Position numbers and translations under genes: made by a program
Sequence record: PQ843332.1
Strand: one strand, 5' to 3'
Length of the DNA stretch: 64,000 bases
Source: Escherichia phage P-GXEC-L2P5
In this document: piece after piece, positions 605-23,963 of the stretch
Layout: every line of letters starts with the position of its first letter
How positions within the stretch are numbered: the first letter of the stretch is position 1
Notes under the pieces: generated by a model
Seen by the model: the letters and a program-made list of their open reading frames with translations, nothing else
What the model was told of the DNA's origin: nothing
Database searches by the model: none

Positions 605-3401
605 ATGGCAGATCAAGCAGCAGGCATCACGCTAAAGGCGGATGTCGCACAAATCAGAACGGCGAATACTGTGCTTGATTCATTCGCACAGAAATCCGAG
701 AACACAGAAAACAAGGTTAAGAAATTAAACGACACACTCGGCAAATCCAAAAAGGTTACGAGTGACGCCGCGGGTGGAATGGAGAAGCTGGCGACTGAAT
801 CGCAGCGCGCCGCAGATGGCATGACGAAACAGGAGCGACTTGCCAACAGGTTAGGCATGTCGACCAAAAACCTGGGCTTTGCCTCGCGTAACGCCGCATT
901 CCAGTTACAGGATATCGCAGTTACGCTTGAGATGGGGATGCCAGTTCACCGCGTCATGCTTCAGCAGTTACCACAGCTTACCGGGGCGTTCGGTGGATTG
1001 GGTAACACGCTGCGTTATGTTGCGGGCTTCCTCGGTCCGGTAGGGATCGGCATTGCAGCACTAACGGCAACGTTAGGCGTAGGAGTGGCGGTTACGTCCC
1101 GTGCCGAAAACCAGGTCGCAGCGCTTAACAAGACGCTGGCGCTGTCGGGTAACATTTCCGGACTCACTGCAAACCAGATCCTGGTGCTATCCGAGAACGC
1201 CGAGCGCATGGGCGGGTCGTTCCGCAAGACGCGTGACACAATCCAGGCGCTGGCGGCGGCGGGTGTGAAAGCGGGTGGTGACTTCGGCGCACTGGCGACC
1301 GCAAGACGCGTGACACAATCCAGGCGCTGGCGGCGGCGGGTGTGAAAGCGGGTGGTGACTTCGGCGCACTGGGGAAGGTAGTGAATGACTTCGCGAAGGT
1401 GTCCAGCCAGCCGATCGAGGATGTGGTCGCGGCGGTGGCGAAGCTGTCAACCGACCCGGTAGGCGGCTTACGGGCATTGGCGGATAAGTATCACGTCGTA
1501 AACGAAGCGCAGATCCAGCAGGTGCAGTCACTAGTGACGGCTGGTCGCGAAACCGAAGCGGTGGCGCTGGCTAACAAAACAGCCGCGGCGTCGTTTACCA
1601 CTATGACCAACGATATTAAGTCCAACATGGGTACGCTTGAGCGGTCGATGAACGTCGTTACATCGGCAGCTAAATCTATGTGGGACGCCATCCTGGATGT
1701 GGGCCGCGCGCAGTCCTCGAATGAGTCAGAGATGAAAGCGCGTGAATCATTGCAGCGACTGACCACGGCTTACTATGCCGAGATGAAAGCGGTCAACGCT
1801 GCCGGTGGGGTGATGACCGAAGCGCAGAAAGCACGTATTAACATGCTTTATAGCGAAATGGTCGCCCAGGAGAAAGTAGTCGCGTCGCTCACCCTGCGCA
1901 ACCGTGCAGAGCGTGACAACGCCAACGCCGCGGAACAATCAGCAAAGGCGAACGAGGAGGCAAACCGCACTGCCCGCGACCGCGCCGCGTTTGAGAAGGA
2001 GTACGCAACCAACGCTAAGCGGCGCGCCGACGAGATCGCCCGCCTCAATTTGCTTAATAAGCGCGGCGTGATTGACGAGAAAGAGCTTGCCGAGGCGGTG
2101 AAGCAGGTAAACGAGCGTTACAAAGACCCCGCCCCGAAGAAGGCCGCCGCTGTTCGAGTCGATGCCGGGCTGAAAATGCTGGAAGTCGCGCGAAGCGAAC
2201 TGGCACAGCTTCGTGAGTCTGGAAAGCAGATCGAAGCCAACTCCTCGACGCAGACCCGAACGCAACGCGCTCAAGCGGCCCTAAACAAGCTGATCGCGGA
2301 TAATGAGCAGTTAATCGCAGCAAGCAAAGAAAGAGCACTAACGGCAGCAGAAAAGCAGCAGATGGTCGAATTCGGACGCGTGAAGGAAGTACGCGAGCAG
2401 ATCGTCGAAGAAGCCAAATTGCTGGACGCGAAAGAGAAGCAGGTCAAGGCGCACGCGCAGATCGACTCCTTCGTTAAGAACCAGAACGCCGAGCTAAAAG
2501 CCACCGCGGCGGGCTATGCGCTTTCCACTCGCGAAGCGGCTAACCTGCGCGAAGAATTGCAGCTAATTGACCGCCTTAAGCGGGTGGGCGCTAGTGATAC
2601 CGATATTGATCTGGCGGTGTCTAAACTGCGCGAAGTGCAGGAAGCACAGACCGGTGCTAACGCCTCACTATGGGATGGATTCAGCCGTGGGCTTAAGGAT
2701 AGCGTGGATGAAATGGGTAACGGCTATACGCAGATGACGTCACTCACAAAATTCACGTTCGGCGCTATGCAGGACACGATGAACGAGTTTTTCGAGACTG
2801 GCAAGCTGAACGCAAAGGATATGGTTAAGTCCATCCTGAGCGAATTAATCAAGCTGGCTACCTCGCAGGCGTTCAAGTCCATCGTTAGCGCTTTCGGTGG
2901 CGACGGCGGCAAAAACGGATTGTTCGGCGCTATCTTCTCGGGCCTCACCAAGAATGCGGACGGCGGAGCGTACGTGGCGACGGCGGCAAAAACGGATTGT
3001 TCGGCGCTATCTTCTCGGGCCTCACTAAGAATGCGGACGGCGGAGCTTACGCAGGGGGCAATCTCGCGGCCTATTCTGGGAAAGTGGTAAGCCAGCCTAC
3101 CTTTTTCAGTTATGGCGTCCAGGCGTTCGCTAAGGGCGCAGGATTGATGGGCGAGGCTGGTCCCGAGGCCATCATGCCGCTGAAGCGCGGGCCGGACGGG
3201 AAACTGGGCGTTGCCGCGTCTGGCGCAGGCGGTGGTATGGTCGTGACGACTAACGTTTACACGGGGACCGGTAAAACGGATACCAGTGTCAGCGGGCCGG
3301 ATCCCCGTACCGCGCAGGCGTTCGGCAAGCAAATCACCGAGGCGGTGAAGGCCGAGATCGTGAAGGCGACGAAACCGGGTGGTGTACTTTACAAACGATG
3401 A
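605..3401 (+). CDS. tail length tape measure protein (frame broken by tandem duplications near 1218-1372 and 2894-3051)
   Basis: ORFs 605-1345, 1342-3090 and 2997-3401 are contiguous; long coiled-coil Ala/Lys/Glu-rich middle; Gly-rich C-terminus; sits upstream of gpM/L/K/I/J-like genes. Confidence 0.75.
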
Positions 3402-3435
3402 TAAAATGGCCCTCACTACAACGTGGGGGCTTTTT

Positions 3436-4112
3436 ATGTCACAAGGTACAATCACACTAACGAAAGGAAGTAAGACCGTCACGGGCGCGGGAACGGCGTT
3501 CCTTAGCGAGATCGGGAAGGTACTCGTATTCGCCCGCATCGACGGCAACGACTACACCGGCAAAATTGCGGCATTCAACTCGAACACGGTCATTACTCTG
3601 AAAGATAACTGGGCCGGTCCGACGAAATCCGGTGCGGCATATGAGCTAATCGAAGCACACGACCCGCGATCAAACGAATGGCCCTATTACTGGCACCGAC
3701 GAAATCCGGTGCGGCATATGAGCTAATCGAAGCACACGACCCACGGTCAAACGAATGGCCCTATTACTGGCACATGCAATTGCAGGGCGGCGGCGACGTG
3801 CAGTTAGCTTTCCGGTCGGAGGAATTGCAATTCGGTAATGGCTACGGACAGAACATCGCGGACGGACCGAACGCAGAAACGAAACAGTTCCCCGTGCAAT
3901 TCGTCGGACTGACTACTGATAAGTGGTGCGACCCTAAACTGGTTTATAACTTTCTGCGCGGTCACTTCGTCAAGCCGTTTGTTGTCACCGCTCCAGATGG
4001 CGAAACAGGTTTATTCGTGGTCGAGCGTTCGAGCTTGTCGTACACTGACAACGGGCACTACACGGCAACTGTGTCCGCCACCCTTAAGACAGCTATTGGA
4101 TTCGTAAGATGA
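3436..4112 (+). CDS. minor tail protein, lambda gpM-like C-terminal domain (frame broken by duplication 3619-3772)
   Basis: ORFs 3379-3726 and 3678-4112; GGAGG-like RBS before ATG 3436; position between tape measure and gpL-like gene. Confidence 0.55.
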
Positions 4113-4897
4113 ATAAACTATATCGCGAGGCGACGCGCTTTGACCCATCGGGACGCGTTCGCCTGATTCACATTGACGCGCAGGACGTGGAGCCTGGCGA
4201 CGGCGCGATCGGCGCGGGCCATCACTATTTTCACTACTGCTTTATTCCGCACACTGCCGAGGATATTGCTGCCGCGGGCGGAGACGAGGACAAGCTAAAG
4301 CCCAAATCTATCTTCTTCGGCGGGCAGGAATTCGAATTCTGGCCCTTCGATTTGTCCGGCCTTAACTTCTCCACATCAACGGCAGCAGAACCGCAGCTAA
4401 CCATCGTTGATATTGGCGGCATAATCACCCGGCTGTCGCTGAATCACGACCAGCTACTGGGCGCGAAGGTTGAAATAATCGACACGTTTGCGAAGTTCCT
4501 GGATAACGGGTCGGATCCAGACCCGACGCAAAAACGTGTCCAGGAGTATTACATCGACTCACAGGTTGGGCGCAATCCAGGCAAGCAGATCACCTTCGCA
4601 TTATCCTCACCCGCGGATATGGAGGGGCAAGTAGTTCCCCGCCGCCAGATCATGAACATGTGCGAATGGGCGCTCAATGGGAAGTACGCCAGCGGGGACG
4701 GCTGCACGTGGAACCTTGCGAAGCCTGGCATCAAGTATTACGACGAGCGAGGTAATGAAGTCATCGCGATGAACATGGACCGATGCGGCGGCTGTTTGTC
4801 CGACTGTTATCTTCGATTTGGGCAAGGGCTTGCGGACCCTAAAGCGGCGGTGCTGGACTTCGGCGGCTTTCCGGGGTCCAGATTAATTAAGGGGTAG
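4109..4897 (+). CDS. minor tail protein, lambda gpL-like
   Basis: Intact 262 aa ORF; C-terminal Cys cluster CGGCLSDC; conserved position; ATGA overlap with upstream gene. Confidence 0.75.
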   Translation: MNKLYREATRFDPSGRVRLIHIDAQDVEPGDGAIGAGHHYFHYCFIPHTAEDIAAAGGDEDKLKPKSIFFGGQEFEFWPFDLSGLNFSTSTAAEPQLTIVDIGGIITRLSLNHDQLLGAKVEIIDTFAKFLDNGSDPDPTQKRVQEYYIDSQVGRNPGKQITFALSSPADMEGQVVPRRQIMNMCEWALNGKYASGDGCTWNLAKPGIKYYDERGNEVIAMNMDRCGGCLSDCYLRFGQGLADPKAAVLDFGGFPGSRLIKG

Positions 4898-19663: not shown

Positions 19664-19942
19664 CTATGCGACCAATTCAGCAACCAATAAATCGCAGTCG
19701 GATATGTTGTCGATAACGCGAACGTCAGCACCGCGGCGGGCCATTCGCTCATGTTCACGTACCTGGTGCGGCTTCGGTTTTCCTCCGGGGCGCTTCACTT
19801 CGACGAACACTATTTTGCCGTTGATGATAATAATCAGGTCGGGCGCACCCGCGCGCCCCTCCCATGCCAGTTTTCGGCAGAAGCCGCCAACCTCTTTCAC
19901 CCGTCGCATCAGGTGGCTTTGAATCTTGCCTTCTGGTGTCAT
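19664..19942 (-). CDS. VRR-NUC domain nuclease
   Basis: GAPDLIIIINGKIVFVEVKRPGGKPKPHQ matches VRR-NUC signature (PD...E-V-K). Confidence 0.6.
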   Translation of the reverse strand: MTPEGKIQSHLMRRVKEVGGFCRKLAWEGRAGAPDLIIIINGKIVFVEVKRPGGKPKPHQVREHERMARRGADVRVIDNISDCDLLVAELVA

Positions 19943-20541
19943 TGTCGGCTTTTCCTTACGGCCGCGATGGCCGGTCCGATAAACTTCTTCATTTCGTCCG
20001 GGGTAAACCGGTCCCCGCGGGCTATGTTGCACTCTACGCAGCACGGCACGCAGTTATCTTTCGTATGGCCTACTGCGTTGTCGAGTCGGTCCGCGCCATT
20101 GTCGCCGGTGAATCCGCAGTATGCGCATGGTTGAGAAGTAAGGCGTAGCACGTCCTCGGTGGTTAGGTCGGTGGTTAGCCCCTTCCTTTCGTCCGCCTTA
20201 CGGTACTGAAAGAGCTTATAGTAAGCTCGGATCTCTGGTGTCCGGTGGTTGTACTCACGGCGGGACTTATTAGAGCACGACCTGCATTCTTTACGAATGT
20301 GTGACTGGCTTGCCCGGTTTCCGGGCCGGAAGTTTTCCGGCGTAAGCGGCTTGCGTTCCCCGCACTGACGGCACGTTACGATCTCCCCGGTATACTCTCG
20401 CCATACTTCGCGCGGCGGCGCTCCTCTTTCCTTATCACGTCTCTCTTTCTTATACGCCGCCATGCATTTGGCACACCACGACTGACCCTTGTTGAAAGCG
20501 GACTCATCTTTATCCGTATTACAACGCCCACAATGTTTCAT
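19939..20541 (-). CDS. HNH endonuclease with N-terminal zinc-ribbon repeats
   Basis: Repeated CxxC pairs; C-terminal CAYCG...DRLDN...H...CCVECN resembles HNH core; ATGA overlap with VRR-NUC gene. Confidence 0.5.
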   Translation of the reverse strand: MKHCGRCNTDKDESAFNKGQSWCAKCMAAYKKERRDKERGAPPREVWREYTGEIVTCRQCGERKPLTPENFRPGNRASQSHIRKECRSCSNKSRREYNHRTPEIRAYYKLFQYRKADERKGLTTDLTTEDVLRLTSQPCAYCGFTGDNGADRLDNAVGHTKDNCVPCCVECNIARGDRFTPDEMKKFIGPAIAAVRKSRQ

Positions 20542-20607
20542 ATACCCCCCGAAAAAGAAAACGCCAGACAATATTGCCTGACGTTTCCGCTAAAAGCAAC
20601 ATTTCCG

Positions 20608-23600
20608 CTACTTGCGGTATCGATACATACAATCGCCCTCTGCGGCAAGTGGGAAGCCTTTCGCCCAAATCGGCAGGTCGCACATCAGCGCGCAAAGTTC
20701 CTCGGTCGTGTAGTCGTCAGTGTCCGGCACTTCGGTGATCAATTCATCGTGCACTGACAGGACGATTTCATAGCCCGCAGCTTCAACGCCAGGCATGGAC
20801 CACGCGAGAATATCGCGACACAACGCTTGCACGATGTTCTCCGTAAGTTTGCCGCCGTAGGTGTACTGGAATCCCCACTGGCGCGTCGTCTGATTCTCGC
20901 CCTGATATTTGATGCGGGTACTGGTGCGCTTCTTGCCGGTGTCTTCGTCGATCTCGGTCGTGACAGACAGTGCGATGCCGGGGTAGCTCATGATGCGCCC
21001 CGACGGCAACTCAATTTTTAACCACCACCCCGCGGCGTTCGGGTCGTCGCGCTCCTCGTCAAAGGTTGGGTCGTGCTTCGCCTTCGTACGGACAATCTTG
21101 AGCGCTTTTCTACCGTCCGGGCGAACGTTCGCACCAGCCCAGTATGCTTTGCCCGGATTGCGGATTGCACACAACACCGCGTCCTCAAGCTCGGCCCAAA
21201 AGGCTACCGTCTTCGGGTGAGCCTCACGCCACATACGTTTGATCGCGTCACAAGTAAGCCATACGTTTTTCGGCAGTATGTAAGTCGGGCGCTCGTCCTT
21301 CTTGCCCGGCTTCGGTGGGCGTTTCGCTTCGTTAATGCGGGCGTACTCATAACCGCGCTTCGCCGCCGCCCAAATGTGATCCGGGAACGTGCCTTTCATC
21401 ACGTCCGCCATAGTGTAAAGGTCGAGTCCCAGGTTTTTAGCGAACTGCAAGAACGCCGCGACGCCGCCACCATAGCCCAGGCCAAGCTCGCAGTTATGCG
21501 CCACCAGAAAACCAGACTTAGACGCAATAAGGAACCGGTTTCCGTCTTCCACATCAATCAGGTCGTAAACCGGCTCGCAATAGGTTAACTTCCCGTTCCA
21601 GTTCAGCAATGCGGGTAAGGGCTTCATCGTACTTTCTCTGAAGCTCGGGCACGCTGCGCCGGTTACGGCAGTTTTCCGAACGGCTGACAAACCGAAGGTT
21701 TCCAGGCTCATAGTTGCCGTCTGTATCGATCCGGTCCATTTCGAAGTCGGGATTATCCCAGCCGTCCAGCGTTTGAACGTAGAGAAGAAACGACCTTTTA
21801 TCTCTCTTCCATTCGTCACATACGGCAATCCCACGACTGCCGTAGTTTTTATACCCTTTGGCGCGGGGGTTTGTCGTTCGTGATATTGCCGCTGACAGCC
21901 GGTTGAGCAGCCGCGTTCTGTGCGCATCGTCTGGCATTGCGTCATCGTAGCAAAAATACTGTTTACGATACCGCTTTGTCGCTTCAATTGCGCAGAGGTT
22001 GCATTGGGATGTTTTACCCCTTCGGACGTTGTCATACCCGACGCGTCCTGGCATCGCTCCGCAATCACATTGGGCCAGCAGTTGTCTGTGCCCCTGTCGT
22101 TTTGGTAATTCGCGCAGGATAACCAGGCGTCCATACCTCTCGCCAGGGCGCGGGCCATCGTGCACCTGTCTGAAACGAGTTGCCTTGCCTCCTTCCATGA
22201 ATGCGTCAAGATTTTGTGGTCTTCTGTCATCAAGACCCCGTCCACGTCTATCACTGGTTTCCACCCCATAAGGTGCGCGCCTTGTGTACTCACCCATTTT
22301 TCGCCGTTCCATACTTTATCCGTTGATGTTACGGCCATAATATCCTTGAACCCGCCATTGGTCAATACTTGGGTATGGCGGTGCAAGCAAGCCTTACCGA
22401 TCTGGCGTAAGTCCTTGCGGTTAGCTTTAATGTAATCCGGGTCCAGGCCGAACATTTTACCGGCAGTCTCGCAATAAATATCGCGACCGGCCTTAAACAC
22501 CATTAACGCGGTTTTCTCGCCAGCGACCCAGGCAAGGCCGCGCCCTTCCACGTTGGAGTAGTCCGCGACGACAAACTTCTTGCCCTTAGCCGGAATGATG
22601 CACCCGCGAACGGTCGAGGCGGTTAGCTTCGATATGTCATACGCCCAGTGCGCTGTCCCGCGTAACAGGGAGTTGATGCCGTTGGTGAGCATGTGCGACC
22701 GAACCCAAAACGAGACGTCGCTTTCACCCTCGCGGCGTTTAATCTTCCCTTCGTGGTCGTCGCTGTACTCGCCACGCGCCAGGTTTTGAGGTTGAAAGCC
22801 TTTACCGGCCCAGCGTAGCGTGCGCTTTGCCCCACCATACTGAAGACACCCACGGCGGCGACCATCTGCGGATAAGCCGTTAACTAGCGGATTGTACTTA
22901 GTCGATGCCGTTGATGACGCTCCGAGGCGCATTTCTATAAGCGCTTTGCCTTCGTCGGGGAAGTCCGGGTCTTCAAGCAGGTCGTTAAGTGTGGATTTCT
23001 GCGCGTTGTGGATTGTGAACGCCGGGGCGATATCACGCAGGATTGGCAGGAAGTCATTGCCTGTCAGTTTACCACCAAATCGCTCCCAGGCTTCTTCCTT
23101 CAATTCTTCCTTATGCGCCTGCACCGCTTTGATCGCGGCGTTCGCCAGGTCAACGTCGACGTAGAAGCCGCGGTCGTTAATCAACTGGTCGATGAGCAGG
23201 ATTTCATCTTCCTTAGGCGAGTTTCCCCAGTCCGGTATGCGCCAGTAGACTTCACGCATTGCGATAATATCCAGCGCGGCATAGCGCAGAAATTTGGCCC
23301 ATTCTTCCGGGTGAGTCTCGCGAGTGTAGCGGCGGATTTTGTAGGTCTTAGGGGTAGGCTTACAGAATCGGTTAATCAGCGCCTTGCCTGCCTTATCCTT
23401 CGCGTGCTCTGCGTCAACGCCCAGAACCTGGCACTGCATATCGAGGCTACCGGGCAGCGCGTGGCGAAAGGCCATAATCATAGTGTCTTCGATCTGGCTT
23501 ACCGGCAGGTCAATACCCCACTTCTCGCGGATAACCAGGCGGTCAAACAGGAGGCCGTTAGCCATCACTATTTTAGCCTTCTTGCGGGATACCCGGCGGA

Positions 23601-23796
23601 GCGCCTTGCGCAGTTCACGCGGCATTGTGGGGGATTCAGTGGCATCCCATGTCTGCACGCGGCCCTCGTCTATGGCGTAGGTGCAAATCATAATCTCTGT
23701 GGTTGGGTGCTCCGCGTAGGCGTACGCCCCAACTTTCTTCAGGTCCACCCCGCTAAATGTCTCGGTGTCGAGAAACAGGCGTTCGAAGTCTTTCAT
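20608..23796 (-). CDS. family A DNA polymerase with 3'-5' exonuclease domain, interrupted by an in-frame intein
   Basis: Intact 1062 aa ORF; exo motif FLDTETFSG; motif A VVADYSNVEGRG; motif B split as RQIGKA/intein/CELGLGYGG; motif C VHDEL. Confidence 0.85.
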   Translation of the reverse strand: MKDFERLFLDTETFSGVDLKKVGAYAYAEHPTTEIMICTYAIDEGRVQTWDATESPTMPRELRKALRRVSRKKAKIVMANGLLFDRLVIREKWGIDLPVSQIEDTMIMAFRHALPGSLDMQCQVLGVDAEHAKDKAGKALINRFCKPTPKTYKIRRYTRETHPEEWAKFLRYAALDIIAMREVYWRIPDWGNSPKEDEILLIDQLINDRGFYVDVDLANAAIKAVQAHKEELKEEAWERFGGKLTGNDFLPILRDIAPAFTIHNAQKSTLNDLLEDPDFPDEGKALIEMRLGASSTASTKYNPLVNGLSADGRRRGCLQYGGAKRTLRWAGKGFQPQNLARGEYSDDHEGKIKRREGESDVSFWVRSHMLTNGINSLLRGTAHWAYDISKLTASTVRGCIIPAKGKKFVVADYSNVEGRGLAWVAGEKTALMVFKAGRDIYCETAGKMFGLDPDYIKANRKDLRQIGKACLHRHTQVLTNGGFKDIMAVTSTDKVWNGEKWVSTQGAHLMGWKPVIDVDGVLMTEDHKILTHSWKEARQLVSDRCTMARALARGMDAWLSCANYQNDRGTDNCWPNVIAERCQDASGMTTSEGVKHPNATSAQLKRQSGIVNSIFATMTQCQTMRTERGCSTGCQRQYHERQTPAPKGIKTTAVVGLPYVTNGREIKGRFFSTFKRWTAGIIPTSKWTGSIQTATMSLETFGLSAVRKTAVTGAACPSFRESTMKPLPALLNWNGKLTYCEPVYDLIDVEDGNRFLIASKSGFLVAHNCELGLGYGGGVAAFLQFAKNLGLDLYTMADVMKGTFPDHIWAAAKRGYEYARINEAKRPPKPGKKDERPTYILPKNVWLTCDAIKRMWREAHPKTVAFWAELEDAVLCAIRNPGKAYWAGANVRPDGRKALKIVRTKAKHDPTFDEERDDPNAAGWWLKIELPSGRIMSYPGIALSVTTEIDEDTGKKRTSTRIKYQGENQTTRQWGFQYTYGGKLTENIVQALCRDILAWSMPGVEAAGYEIVLSVHDELITEVPDTDDYTTEELCALMCDLPIWAKGFPLAAEGDCMYRYRK
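21493..22389 (-). mobile_element. intein (299 codons) inserted in polymerase motif B
   Basis: Block A CLHRHTQVLTNGG, block B DGVLMTEDHKILT, block F/G VYDLIDVEDGNRFLIASKSGFLVAHN followed by +1 Cys; removal restores RQIGKACELGLGYGG. Confidence 0.7.
21554..22198 (-). CDS. HNH homing endonuclease encoded in an alternate frame inside the intein
   Basis: ORF 21554-22312 in a different frame from the polymerase; GERYGRLVIL...QCDCG...GKTSQCNLC and GYKNYGSRGIAVCDEW...DRIDTDGNYEPGNLRFVSRSENCRNRR match the common phage HNH family; ATG at 22198. Confidence 0.6.
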   Translation of the reverse strand: MEGGKATRFRQVHDGPRPGERYGRLVILRELPKRQGHRQLLAQCDCGAMPGRVGYDNVRRGKTSQCNLCAIEATKRYRKQYFCYDDAMPDDAHRTRLLNRLSAAISRTTNPRAKGYKNYGSRGIAVCDEWKRDKRSFLLYVQTLDGWDNPDFEMDRIDTDGNYEPGNLRFVSRSENCRNRRSVPELQRKYDEALTRIAELEREVNLLRAGLRPD

Positions 23797-23963
23797 TGCT
23801 TTATCCTCACTACGGCGTCAGCGCTGCCGATCATGGAGAAGATGCCGTCGGACAGGGCGATCTCTTCGCCGTTGTTGCGAATCTCGGCAACTGTGAAATA
23901 TTCCCCCAGTAGCTTGGACCATACTTGCATTCCGACTTTTACTTCGCTGGCTTTAATACGCAT
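23793..23963 (-). CDS. hypothetical small protein (56 aa)
   Basis: ORF MRIKASEVKVGMQVW...; stop overlaps polymerase start (ATGA). Confidence 0.3.
   Translation of the reverse strand: MRIKASEVKVGMQVWSKLLGEYFTVAEIRNNGEEIALSDGIFSMIGSADAVVRIKQ

Follow-up and report, generated by a model that had tools for sequence, protein, structure and literature searches.

How can one stretch of DNA inside a DNA polymerase gene be read in two frames, once as part of the polymerase precursor and once as a nuclease-like protein in its own right? This question is raised by Escherichia phage P-GXEC-L2P5 (sequence record PQ843332.1), of which a stretch of 64,000 nucleotides, hereafter called the window, was analysed. 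The family A DNA polymerase gene of this phage contains an insert with the features of an intein, and the insert is overlapped, on the same strand, by an open reading frame (ORF) for a putative HNH-type endonuclease. Very probably, a homing-endonuclease gene of the free-standing type occupies the endonuclease slot of a class-1 polymerase intein, on the same strand and in the -1 frame, and the stretch is dual-coding. A wider claim is held with more reserve and is still judged rather probable: the locus would belong to an extensive and ancient lineage, mobile to this day, of family A polymerase inteins without an endonuclease domain of their own, the nuclease being translated separately from the other frame of the spacer, from an ATG derived from a Trp codon, and bearing an HNH site in which His is replaced by Arg. 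This lineage would occupy three adjacent codons of polymerase motif B, with at least one move into an SNF2 helicase gene, in phages of enterobacteria, Pseudomonas and streptococci as well as in many uncultured phages.

Dual coding and selection

The polymerase region of the window was 99.9% identical to that of Sodalis phage SO-1 (genus Dhillonvirus). Over the 214 codons of overlap, counted on the SO-1 record, both the polymerase frame and the alternate frame contained no stop codon and the third frame contained 16, so that the preliminary description of this DNA, made from its letters alone, was right in calling both frames open. When the alternate-frame gene was permuted with synonymous codons, about 4.4 polymerase-frame stops appeared and none of 500 trials left that frame open; the dual openness is therefore far beyond chance. 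Likewise, the polymerase frame was free of stops over about 208 codons in all 78 related IMG/VR loci (see below), with a mean of 13.5 stops in the third frame, and synonymous shuffles within their nuclease genes gave a mean of 3.8 polymerase-frame stops and an open frame in 2.5% of trials; these figures ignore kinship among the loci. The corresponding (+1) frame of four free-standing homologues displayed 5-17 stops.

Codon-position variability, expressed as the fraction of variable sites at polymerase positions 1, 2 and 3, was established for the window and ten Jerseyvirus and Dhillonvirus relatives (Table 1). The N-extein displayed normal coding in the polymerase frame. The slot core displayed the classic 3>1>2 pattern of the alternate frame (chi-square p=3e-14). 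Substitutions that are silent in the alternate frame but alter the polymerase-frame residue reached 2.2-2.4 times the expected number, and those that are non-synonymous in the alternate frame remained at 0.26-0.78 times the expected number, silent in the polymerase frame or not. At 80% nucleotide identity, alternate-frame proteins were 81-83% identical and polymerase-frame peptides 58-62%. The wider family (2926 pairs) displayed mean identities of 0.52 in the alternate frame and 0.27 in the polymerase frame, and mean nucleotide identities of 0.59, 0.66 and 0.38 at alternate-frame positions 1, 2 and 3, respectively.

These patterns point to purifying selection on the alternate frame only, the polymerase frame being merely kept stop-free. 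The slot stretch thus appears to be truly dual-coding in an asymmetric manner, selection maintaining a protein in one frame and mere readability in the other. The codon-position analysis that had been proposed at the outset found its selection signature in the alternate frame alone. As for the choice then left between dual coding and an in-frame endonuclease hit by two compensating frameshifts, recurrence and selection spoke for the former, and the frameshifts were discarded. With about 200 codons under dual coding, in many natural replicates, the locus also offers a clean case on which methods detecting overlapping genes could be benchmarked.

Table 1. Coordinates and characteristics of the features in and around the polymerase intein of the window (aa, amino acids; pLDDT, predicted local distance difference test score; variability at polymerase codon positions 1/2/3).
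Feature	Position	Strand	Characteristics	Variability
Family A DNA polymerase precursor gene	20608..23796	minus	1062 codons plus stop; corresponds to SO-1 gp38; Pfam DNA_pol_A, E=3e-13	
N-extein	22390..23796	minus	Polymerase aa 1-469, ends ...RQIGKA	0.31 / 0.23 / 0.84
C-extein and stop codon	20608..21492	minus	Starts with Cys+1 (CELGLGYGGG, polymerase motif B)	0.30 / 0.24 / 0.81
Intein	21493..22389	minus	299 codons, 897 bp; Cys1 (CLHRHTQ...) to ...FLVAHN, then Cys+1	
Intein N-terminal splicing domain	22174..22389	minus	Intein aa 1-72, blocks A and B; pLDDT 95-97	0.14 / 0.07 / 0.28
Intein C-terminal splicing domain	21493..21582	minus	Blocks F and G, ...VYDLIDVEDGNRF...VAHN; pLDDT 92-97	0.03 / 0 / 0.47
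Alternate-frame ORF	21554..22312	minus, -1 relative to polymerase frame	252 aa in its longest form; corresponds to SO-1 gp39	
Dual-coding core (197-codon slot core)	21583..22173	minus	Polymerase frame: Thr/Ser/Ala-rich spacer of about 197 residues; -1 frame: nuclease-like body	0.09 / 0.43 / 0.22
N-terminal beta-rich DNA-binding module (predicted)	21980..22144	minus	CxC...CxxC zinc site C44, C46, C66, C69	
HNH-like beta-beta-alpha core (predicted)	21656..21751	minus	aa 150-181; invariant D155, R156, Y163, N167, N176	
C-terminal long helix	21575..21652	minus	aa 183-208; coiled-coil-like; weak bZIP, DivIC and GCN4-type matches	

Mobility of the cassette

Insertion was followed with a spliced-junction query of 400 nucleotides on each side of the insertion point. 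Among the matches listed (every other one of 157 Dhillonvirus-type records), the query was contiguous in most, at 93-95% identity, and split by 897 base pairs (bp) only in SO-1, EP23, PS2, AV129 and Pubbukkers. This 897-bp block is exactly the stretch that intein-less relatives lack. The equivalent query made from Salmonella phage SETP3 matched alleles with as well as without the insert in close relatives of Jerseyvirus and Kagunavirus type, and in Jerseyvirus the intein-less alleles were likewise precise. The intein-less Escherichia phage vB_EcoS-UDS3lw encodes the identical junction, RQIGKA followed by CELGLGYGGG, and its sequence reads GGTAAGGCG before and TGCGAATTGGGA after the insertion point. 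When this allele (locus L095, around position 500) was compared with window positions 21478..21492, five silent differences were recorded in the 15 nucleotides 3' of the insertion point, a denser set than in the flanks, which may be a signature of co-conversion or of the target site.

At the nucleotide level, window and Jerseyviruses were 80-88% identical in the intein and 63-65% identical in the exteins; the cassette therefore crossed between the genera after their divergence. More generally, its presence or absence among close relatives, together with its low divergence compared to the host gene, indicates that it moves horizontally. Three adjacent insertion positions were encountered in motif B (loci L010-L089, the window junctions being 22389/22390 and 21492/21493): the +1 Cys was located at K+2 in 20 distinct loci, including the window, at K+3 in two and at K+6 in 48. 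This distribution suggests site drift of one mobile unit. Presence/absence and low intein divergence also point, indirectly, to homing, in which the alternate-frame protein would cleave the intein-less allele site-specifically.

The alternate-frame protein

The alternate-frame protein matched PHROG 374 'HNH endonuclease' with E=2.7e-47, and the PHROG 'endonuclease VII' family only with E=7.6e-5. Its AlphaFold2 model (pLDDT 88.7) displayed a beta module, a helical region with a beta-beta-alpha unit, and a long C-terminal helix, a possible dimerisation element. In the first module, modelled with strands within residues 25-54, the zinc-site cysteines were invariant or nearly so among 74 relatives, 15 of which matched the CapR homology domain of Pfam (PF21817, best E=7e-6), a DNA-binding zinc finger of phage homing endonucleases. 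The beta-beta-alpha unit spanned residues 153-156, 168-171 and 173-178, and His93 was nearly invariant in the protein.

A profile of the 74 members matched 119,556 cluster representatives in a library of 1.8 billion proteins. Homologues occurred as stand-alone genes in phages of Rhizobium, Acinetobacter and Burkholderia, and in Staphylococcus phage Lacachita the homologue is encoded by a group I intron that interrupts the endolysin gene. Such positions are the habitat of homing endonuclease genes.

Part of what weighs against the favoured explanation concerns the active site. The general-base His of HNH enzymes is replaced by Arg156, invariant in the 74 members and in four free-standing homologues, and none of the 74 members matched any Pfam HNH family or gave an NCBIfam match. 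The 'well-formed HNH endonuclease' of the preliminary description thus kept its motifs and its family (PHROG 374) but lost its first catalytic His, the motif at 21731..21736 being Asp155-Arg156. The profile searches that had been recommended were similarly divided: the HNH and intein models of Pfam and NCBIfam failed, and PHROG 374 and the Hint matches found with Foldseek (see below) succeeded.

In I-HmuI, His75 acts as general base, D74 and N96 are metal ligands and N87 is structural. An hhalign comparison with this enzyme (sequence identical to PDB 1U3E) was weak (E=0.05) and placed D155, N167 and N176 on D74, N87 and N96, and Arg156 on His75. Foldseek comparison of the nuclease-like model with the PDB returned nothing significant, the best structural match being PacI (PDB 3M7K). 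When the PDB was searched by sequence, neither the protein nor the family profile retrieved more than coiled-coil noise and a zinc ribbon resembling that of cytochrome oxidase subunit 5B. Catalytic competence of the alternate-frame protein is therefore plausible at best.

The main rival explanation starts from the same observations. The protein would be real and selected without being an active nuclease; it would be a domesticated DNA binder (a CapR-like regulator or targeting factor), and the intein would spread by ordinary recombination or through another nuclease, for instance the canonical free-standing HNH gene found downstream of the polymerase gene at 19939..20571. The presence of that gene, the Arg common to all members examined and the lack of a nuclease profile match in the Pfam and NCBIfam scans would agree with such a role, as would the homology of the N-terminal module to CapR, itself a domesticated DNA binder of homing-endonuclease origin. 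Against it, the equivalents of the metal ligands (D155 and N176) and of the structural Asn (N167) are invariant, which binding alone would not require. Homologues also occupy classic homing-endonuclease positions, including a group I intron, and the cassette displays presence/absence of the homing type, exact boundaries and low divergence. Moreover, PacI is likewise an HNH enzyme without the usual His and is reported to use Tyr. We consider a domesticated binder unlikely, without neglecting it.

Start of the alternate-frame ORF

The ORF ends with a TGA at 21554-21556, within the C-terminal splicing domain of the intein. Its longest form starts at ATG 22312, and a start conserved in the family, ATG 22297, gives a protein of 247 aa (MGEY...). 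The preliminary description had correctly located this stop and an ATG at 22198, and every motif that it quoted is present in the sequence. ATG 22198 is peculiar to SO-1 and its close relatives, being CTG in the seven Jerseyvirus loci read. Upstream of it the ORF extends to the two other ATGs over about 40 codons of the N-terminal splicing domain, the last ones of that domain, which double as the 5' part of the -1-frame ORF. Instead of lying exactly inside the endonuclease slot, as first described, the ORF reaches into the splicing domains on either side.

In the N-terminal splicing domain, two conserved Trp codons (VW.G and ..W[VI]) each give rise to an NTG codon when read in the -1 frame. 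Among 70 distinct loci, the base preceding the first one was A in 43, G in 11, T in 16 and C in none, compared to a background of 34% C at third positions; this site is thus ATG, GTG or TTG and never CTG (0/70). At the second one, A was enriched (A in 42, G in 23, T in 4 and C in 1). The Jerseyvirus loci examined (SETP3, L012 and L015-L017) contained a stop codon between the two sites, and the second site, corresponding to 22297 in the window, is therefore the common candidate start. A Shine-Dalgarno-like duplex preceded this second site in 96% of loci, compared to 9% in the background, and coincided with Trp-Asp-Gly codons. Finally, polymerase third positions were less variable where the nuclease ORF overlaps the N-terminal splicing domain (7/42, or 0.17) than upstream (13/30, or 0.43; p=0.017).

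The other points against the favoured explanation concern this start. The Shine-Dalgarno-like signal of the window is weak (-3.9 kcal/mol for 22297 and -3.3 kcal/mol for 22312), and the family-wide signal, together with the start codons, follows in part from the conserved Trp-Asp-Gly codons of the intein. With kinship among the 70-78 loci ignored, the start-site statistics are suggestive of initiation at Trp-derived codons, and 22297 is the probable start of the nuclease-like ORF.

Programmed ribosomal frameshifting would provide another route to the same protein: a -1 slip would produce a fusion of N-extein, N-terminal intein domain and nuclease, and a slip in and back a conventional endonuclease-containing intein. 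The nuclease did occur in the -1 frame in 78/78 loci of the main lineage, a constancy that common descent alone would produce, and the start candidates of the window are not preceded by a strong Shine-Dalgarno sequence. Yet, a canonical X_XXY_YYZ heptamer was found in only 10 of these 78 loci, at scattered positions and without any conserved slippery site, and the version of a Streptococcus prophage uses the +1 frame. In addition, the polymerase frame need not stay open if ribosomes left it, and the start-codon enrichment at the Trp-derived sites points to initiation. Frameshifting is accordingly regarded as very improbable.

Nature of the insert

The insert starts at a Cys codon (22387..22389), and residues C1, T55, H58, D276, H298 and N299 were invariant in an alignment of 71 related inteins; T55 and H58 belong to the Thr-x-x-His of block B, here TEDH. 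The residue following the intein was Cys in 67 and Ser in three of 70 distinct related loci (in the window, ...VAHN is followed by CELG). An AlphaFold2 model built on the 71-sequence alignment displayed pLDDT values of 92-97 for residues 1-100 and 270-299; residues 102-249, in the polymerase-frame spacer, remained at about 30 and without secondary structure. The best 33 matches of this model in the PDB, as found with Foldseek, were all of intein or Hint type, with a top probability of about 1, and included gp41-1, DnaB, DnaE and RecA inteins, Vint, bacterial intein-like and Hedgehog domains. Since the intein models of Pfam and NCBIfam did not match the polymerase-frame intein, membership rests on motifs, fold and exact intein-less alleles. 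A match to PHROG 93 'endonuclease' carries little information.

By its motifs and modelled fold, the insert is assigned to the class-1 inteins of the Hint superfamily. Every sequence and fold hallmark of protein splicing is conserved, and the precursor would be expected to splice, given its conserved catalytic residues and the essential nature of the polymerase.

The RefSeq record of SO-1 (NC_013600.1) presents gp38 as 'DNA polymerase' and gp39 as 'HNH endonuclease', with the note 'type I self-splicing intron'. A group I intron carrying a homing-endonuclease gene would fit this note on both genes, as well as the intron position of the Lacachita homologue. Rfam, however, found no intron in 20600..23800, even at E<=1, and the polymerase frame is continuous over its 1062 codons. 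The Cys start, the His-Asn end followed by Cys, the conserved Hint blocks and the Hint fold likewise speak against an intron, a reading to which we give hardly any credence. The annotation of SO-1 is corrected here, the element labelled as a group I intron being best described as an intein.

Recurrence of the layout

Both frames were open in Salmonella phages SETP3, PIZ SAE-01E2 and Ent1 (about 80% nucleotide identity) and in Pseudomonas phage MR14 (47% protein identity). About 150 GenBank phage records of Jerseyvirus and Dhillonvirus contained a copy of the alternate-frame protein that was at least 80% identical. The dual-frame layout was also displayed by 78/78 usable IMG/VR viral contigs (protein identity 39-100%), which were found with an alignment query, an earlier single-protein scan of viral contigs having given close relatives only. 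The recurring layout consists of an ORF of about 250 codons nested in the -1 frame of a polymerase ORF of 600-1278 codons with intein motifs. The Streptococcus prophage Javan255 (locus L005, 1377-4259) carries the cassette at the K+6 site with a nuclease ORF (2884-3657) that is about 33% identical and lies in the +1 frame; this version arose independently or was re-phased.

The proposal of an ordinary in-frame HNH-containing intein with two compensating frameshift errors, which could invoke the indel of one old record (Salmonella phage SS3e, AY730274.2), is refuted because the same frame relation recurs, free of stops, in about 150 phage genomes that were sequenced independently of each other, as well as in 78 metagenomic loci, and because the polymerase frame, which codon shuffling would usually close, has stayed open, in itself an indication of selection; its probability is close to nil. 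The comparison with homologous polymerase genes that the preliminary description had advised, in search of an in-frame HNH-intein, retrieved loci that keep the nuclease out of frame (78/78 in IMG/VR).

Several irregular copies were recorded. The indel in SS3e (locus L018, 2837-3643) swaps the frames and would break the polymerase; it is probably a sequencing error in an old record. Locus L084 (2872-3381) has a premature stop in the nuclease frame (170 aa) and an open polymerase frame, a possible case of endonuclease decay. Natural in-frame versions were sought among the long proteins of the family, which turned out to be multi-repeat free-standing proteins without Hint domains. Two apparent fusions, P0045 and P0049 (loci L094 and L096, respectively), were rejected, both occurring in broken or truncated metagenomic contigs and looking degenerate. 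In L094 (ENA ERZ25039473 contig, 2038-4165), the nuclease continues the frame of the polymerase N-extein and intein N-terminal domain, the remaining polymerase follows in the +1 frame, and a further break interrupts the polymerase upstream. Either the copy is decaying or the assembly is faulty, and the locus makes poor evidence for a natural in-frame form. In L096 (JGI 3300006999 contig, 720-2321), the N-terminal part of an SNF2 helicase runs in frame into a nuclease homologue. The +1 frame contains a very similar intein C-terminal domain (VYDIANAGPRNRFTVLTNKGPVIAHN followed by C) and then helicase sequence; the intein lacks its N-terminal domain. It would seem that a helicase gene also received the cassette, in a copy that is probably degenerate, the contig being too short to tell.

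Proposed mechanism and origin

According to the favoured explanation, a homing-endonuclease gene nested in the polymerase intein, ribosomes in the polymerase frame would pass about 197 stop-free and otherwise unconstrained codons, producing a disordered spacer between the two splicing domains. The intein would then splice out and restore polymerase motif B. The nuclease would be made at low level, by inefficient internal initiation at the ATG derived from a Trp codon (22297, or 22312). During mixed infection, it would cut intein-less polymerase alleles near the sequence coding for motif B, and recombinational repair would copy intein and nuclease gene together as one cassette. As to its origin, a free-standing homing endonuclease gene most probably invaded a mini-intein, and we propose that host-frame stop codons were purged after this invasion because the polymerase is essential.

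E. coli and Salmonella support the growth of Dhillonviruses and Jerseyviruses with the intein as well as of those without it. Internal out-of-frame translation, homing of the intein and cutting by an HNH site with Arg in place of His are therefore directly testable.

Neighbouring genes and annotation

Directly downstream of the polymerase gene, on the minus strand, the window contains a separate ORF of 210 aa (19939..20571, SO-1 gp37) with a canonical-looking HNH C-terminus (CAYCG...H..N..CCVECN). An HNH gene occurs at the same position in SETP3, and none is found there in PIZ SAE-01E2. This gene is a second mobile endonuclease adjoining the intein.

An annotation of the nested gene was found only in SO-1 among those Jerseyvirus and Dhillonvirus entries for which annotations were read or listed. 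The Ent1 record annotates its polymerase intein merely as 'encoding splicing domains'.

The window (64 kilobases) is longer than the SO-1 record (45,169 bp). Five test 60-mers from its first 18 kilobases were each single-copy in the window, and its region 36000-60000 matched Dhillonvirus structural genes at about 95% only and on the opposite strand. A simple wrap-around of the SO-1 record therefore does not account for the window.

Comparison with known systems

The preliminary description knew of no example of a free-standing HNH gene inside an intein linker. This claim could not be maintained, since the SO-1 record already annotates gp39 and actinophage inteins with endonucleases in another frame or on the other strand were presented in a recent preprint (Gosselin, Arsenault and Gogarten, bioRxiv 2025). 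The families reported there are endonuclease VII-like, antisense LAGLIDADG or VSR-like, and one type, an endonuclease VII-like gene in 'frame 3', was called previously unreported. The inteins of that study resemble the present one by a contiguous intein, a slot without recognisable fold in the extein frame and an endonuclease on the same strand in 'frame 3' (equivalent to -1). Further common points are an endonuclease related to free-standing phage genes, a proposed origin by invasion and evidence of continuing transfer.

The differences from the preprint concern protein, host gene and distribution. The endonuclease described there has its catalytic domain in residues 1-67 and matches T4 endonuclease VII, whereas the present protein displays an N-terminal zinc-finger module, a C-terminal HNH-like core with His replaced by Arg, and PacI as best structural match. 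The host gene is here a family A DNA polymerase, at motif B; the preprint lists DNA polymerase (Pol III alpha in its survey), minor capsid, terminase and thymidylate synthase genes. Hosts are enterobacteria, Pseudomonas and Streptococcus, with many metagenomic phages, in contrast to actinophages. The present system also differs by a large lineage, three insertion positions, two frame relationships and selection quantified for each frame. The text of the preprint contains no mention of SETP3 or Salmonella, and full-text literature searches found no paper describing an alternate-frame gene in the polymerase intein of Jerseyvirus or Dhillonvirus. The architecture of inteins with out-of-frame endonucleases was thus already known in 2025; what is new is the endonuclease family, the host gene, the wider distribution and the convenient phages. 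This study extends that architecture beyond actinophages, to another endonuclease family, another host gene and a much wider host range.

In the fractured genes described by Dassa et al. (2009, PMC2677866), a free-standing homing endonuclease gene lies between the halves of a split intein. These systems share with the present one an intein and a separately translated endonuclease acting as a mobile unit in replication genes, and the invaded-intein model. Yet, the host gene is there divided into two ORFs and the intein acts in trans, whereas a single ORF of 1062 codons is here overlapped by the endonuclease gene; the polymerase ORF was continuous across the overlap in the window and in 78/78 loci.

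The 'hidden' out-of-frame HNH insertion of ShiLan type in a phage DNA methylase (Arsenault et al. 2025, PMC11855218) is likewise an HNH-type gene out of frame within an insertion that is stop-free in the host frame. That insertion is devoid of splicing domains and thought to be retained in the protein, whereas complete intein splicing domains flank the present one.

Conventional LAGLIDADG or in-frame HNH inteins also contain an endonuclease sequence between blocks B and F and display presence/absence of the homing type. In them, the intein polypeptide includes the endonuclease as one of its domains. In the present case the endonuclease would be a separate polypeptide from another frame, the intein itself holding a disordered spacer, and the translation of the slot in the polymerase frame was indeed disordered and unconstrained. 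With I-HmuI and PacI the protein has in common a predicted beta-beta-alpha core and, for I-HmuI, the aligned Asp and Asn residues; it differs from I-HmuI by the Arg at the position of the general base and by its DNA-binding modules.

Finally, the arrangement recalls group I introns with an endonuclease gene, in that a self-splicing element neutralises the damage of insertion and a separate endonuclease gives mobility. Because splicing takes place here at the protein level, the same nucleotides have to encode the endonuclease and keep the host frame open, a constraint that intron ORFs do not have. The locus supports the view of mobile intein origin in which the splicing element comes first and the endonuclease invades later. 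If the wider claim made at the outset is true, the lineage would represent a protein-level counterpart of the collaborative homing of an intron plus a free-standing endonuclease, in phages that can be crossed on E. coli.

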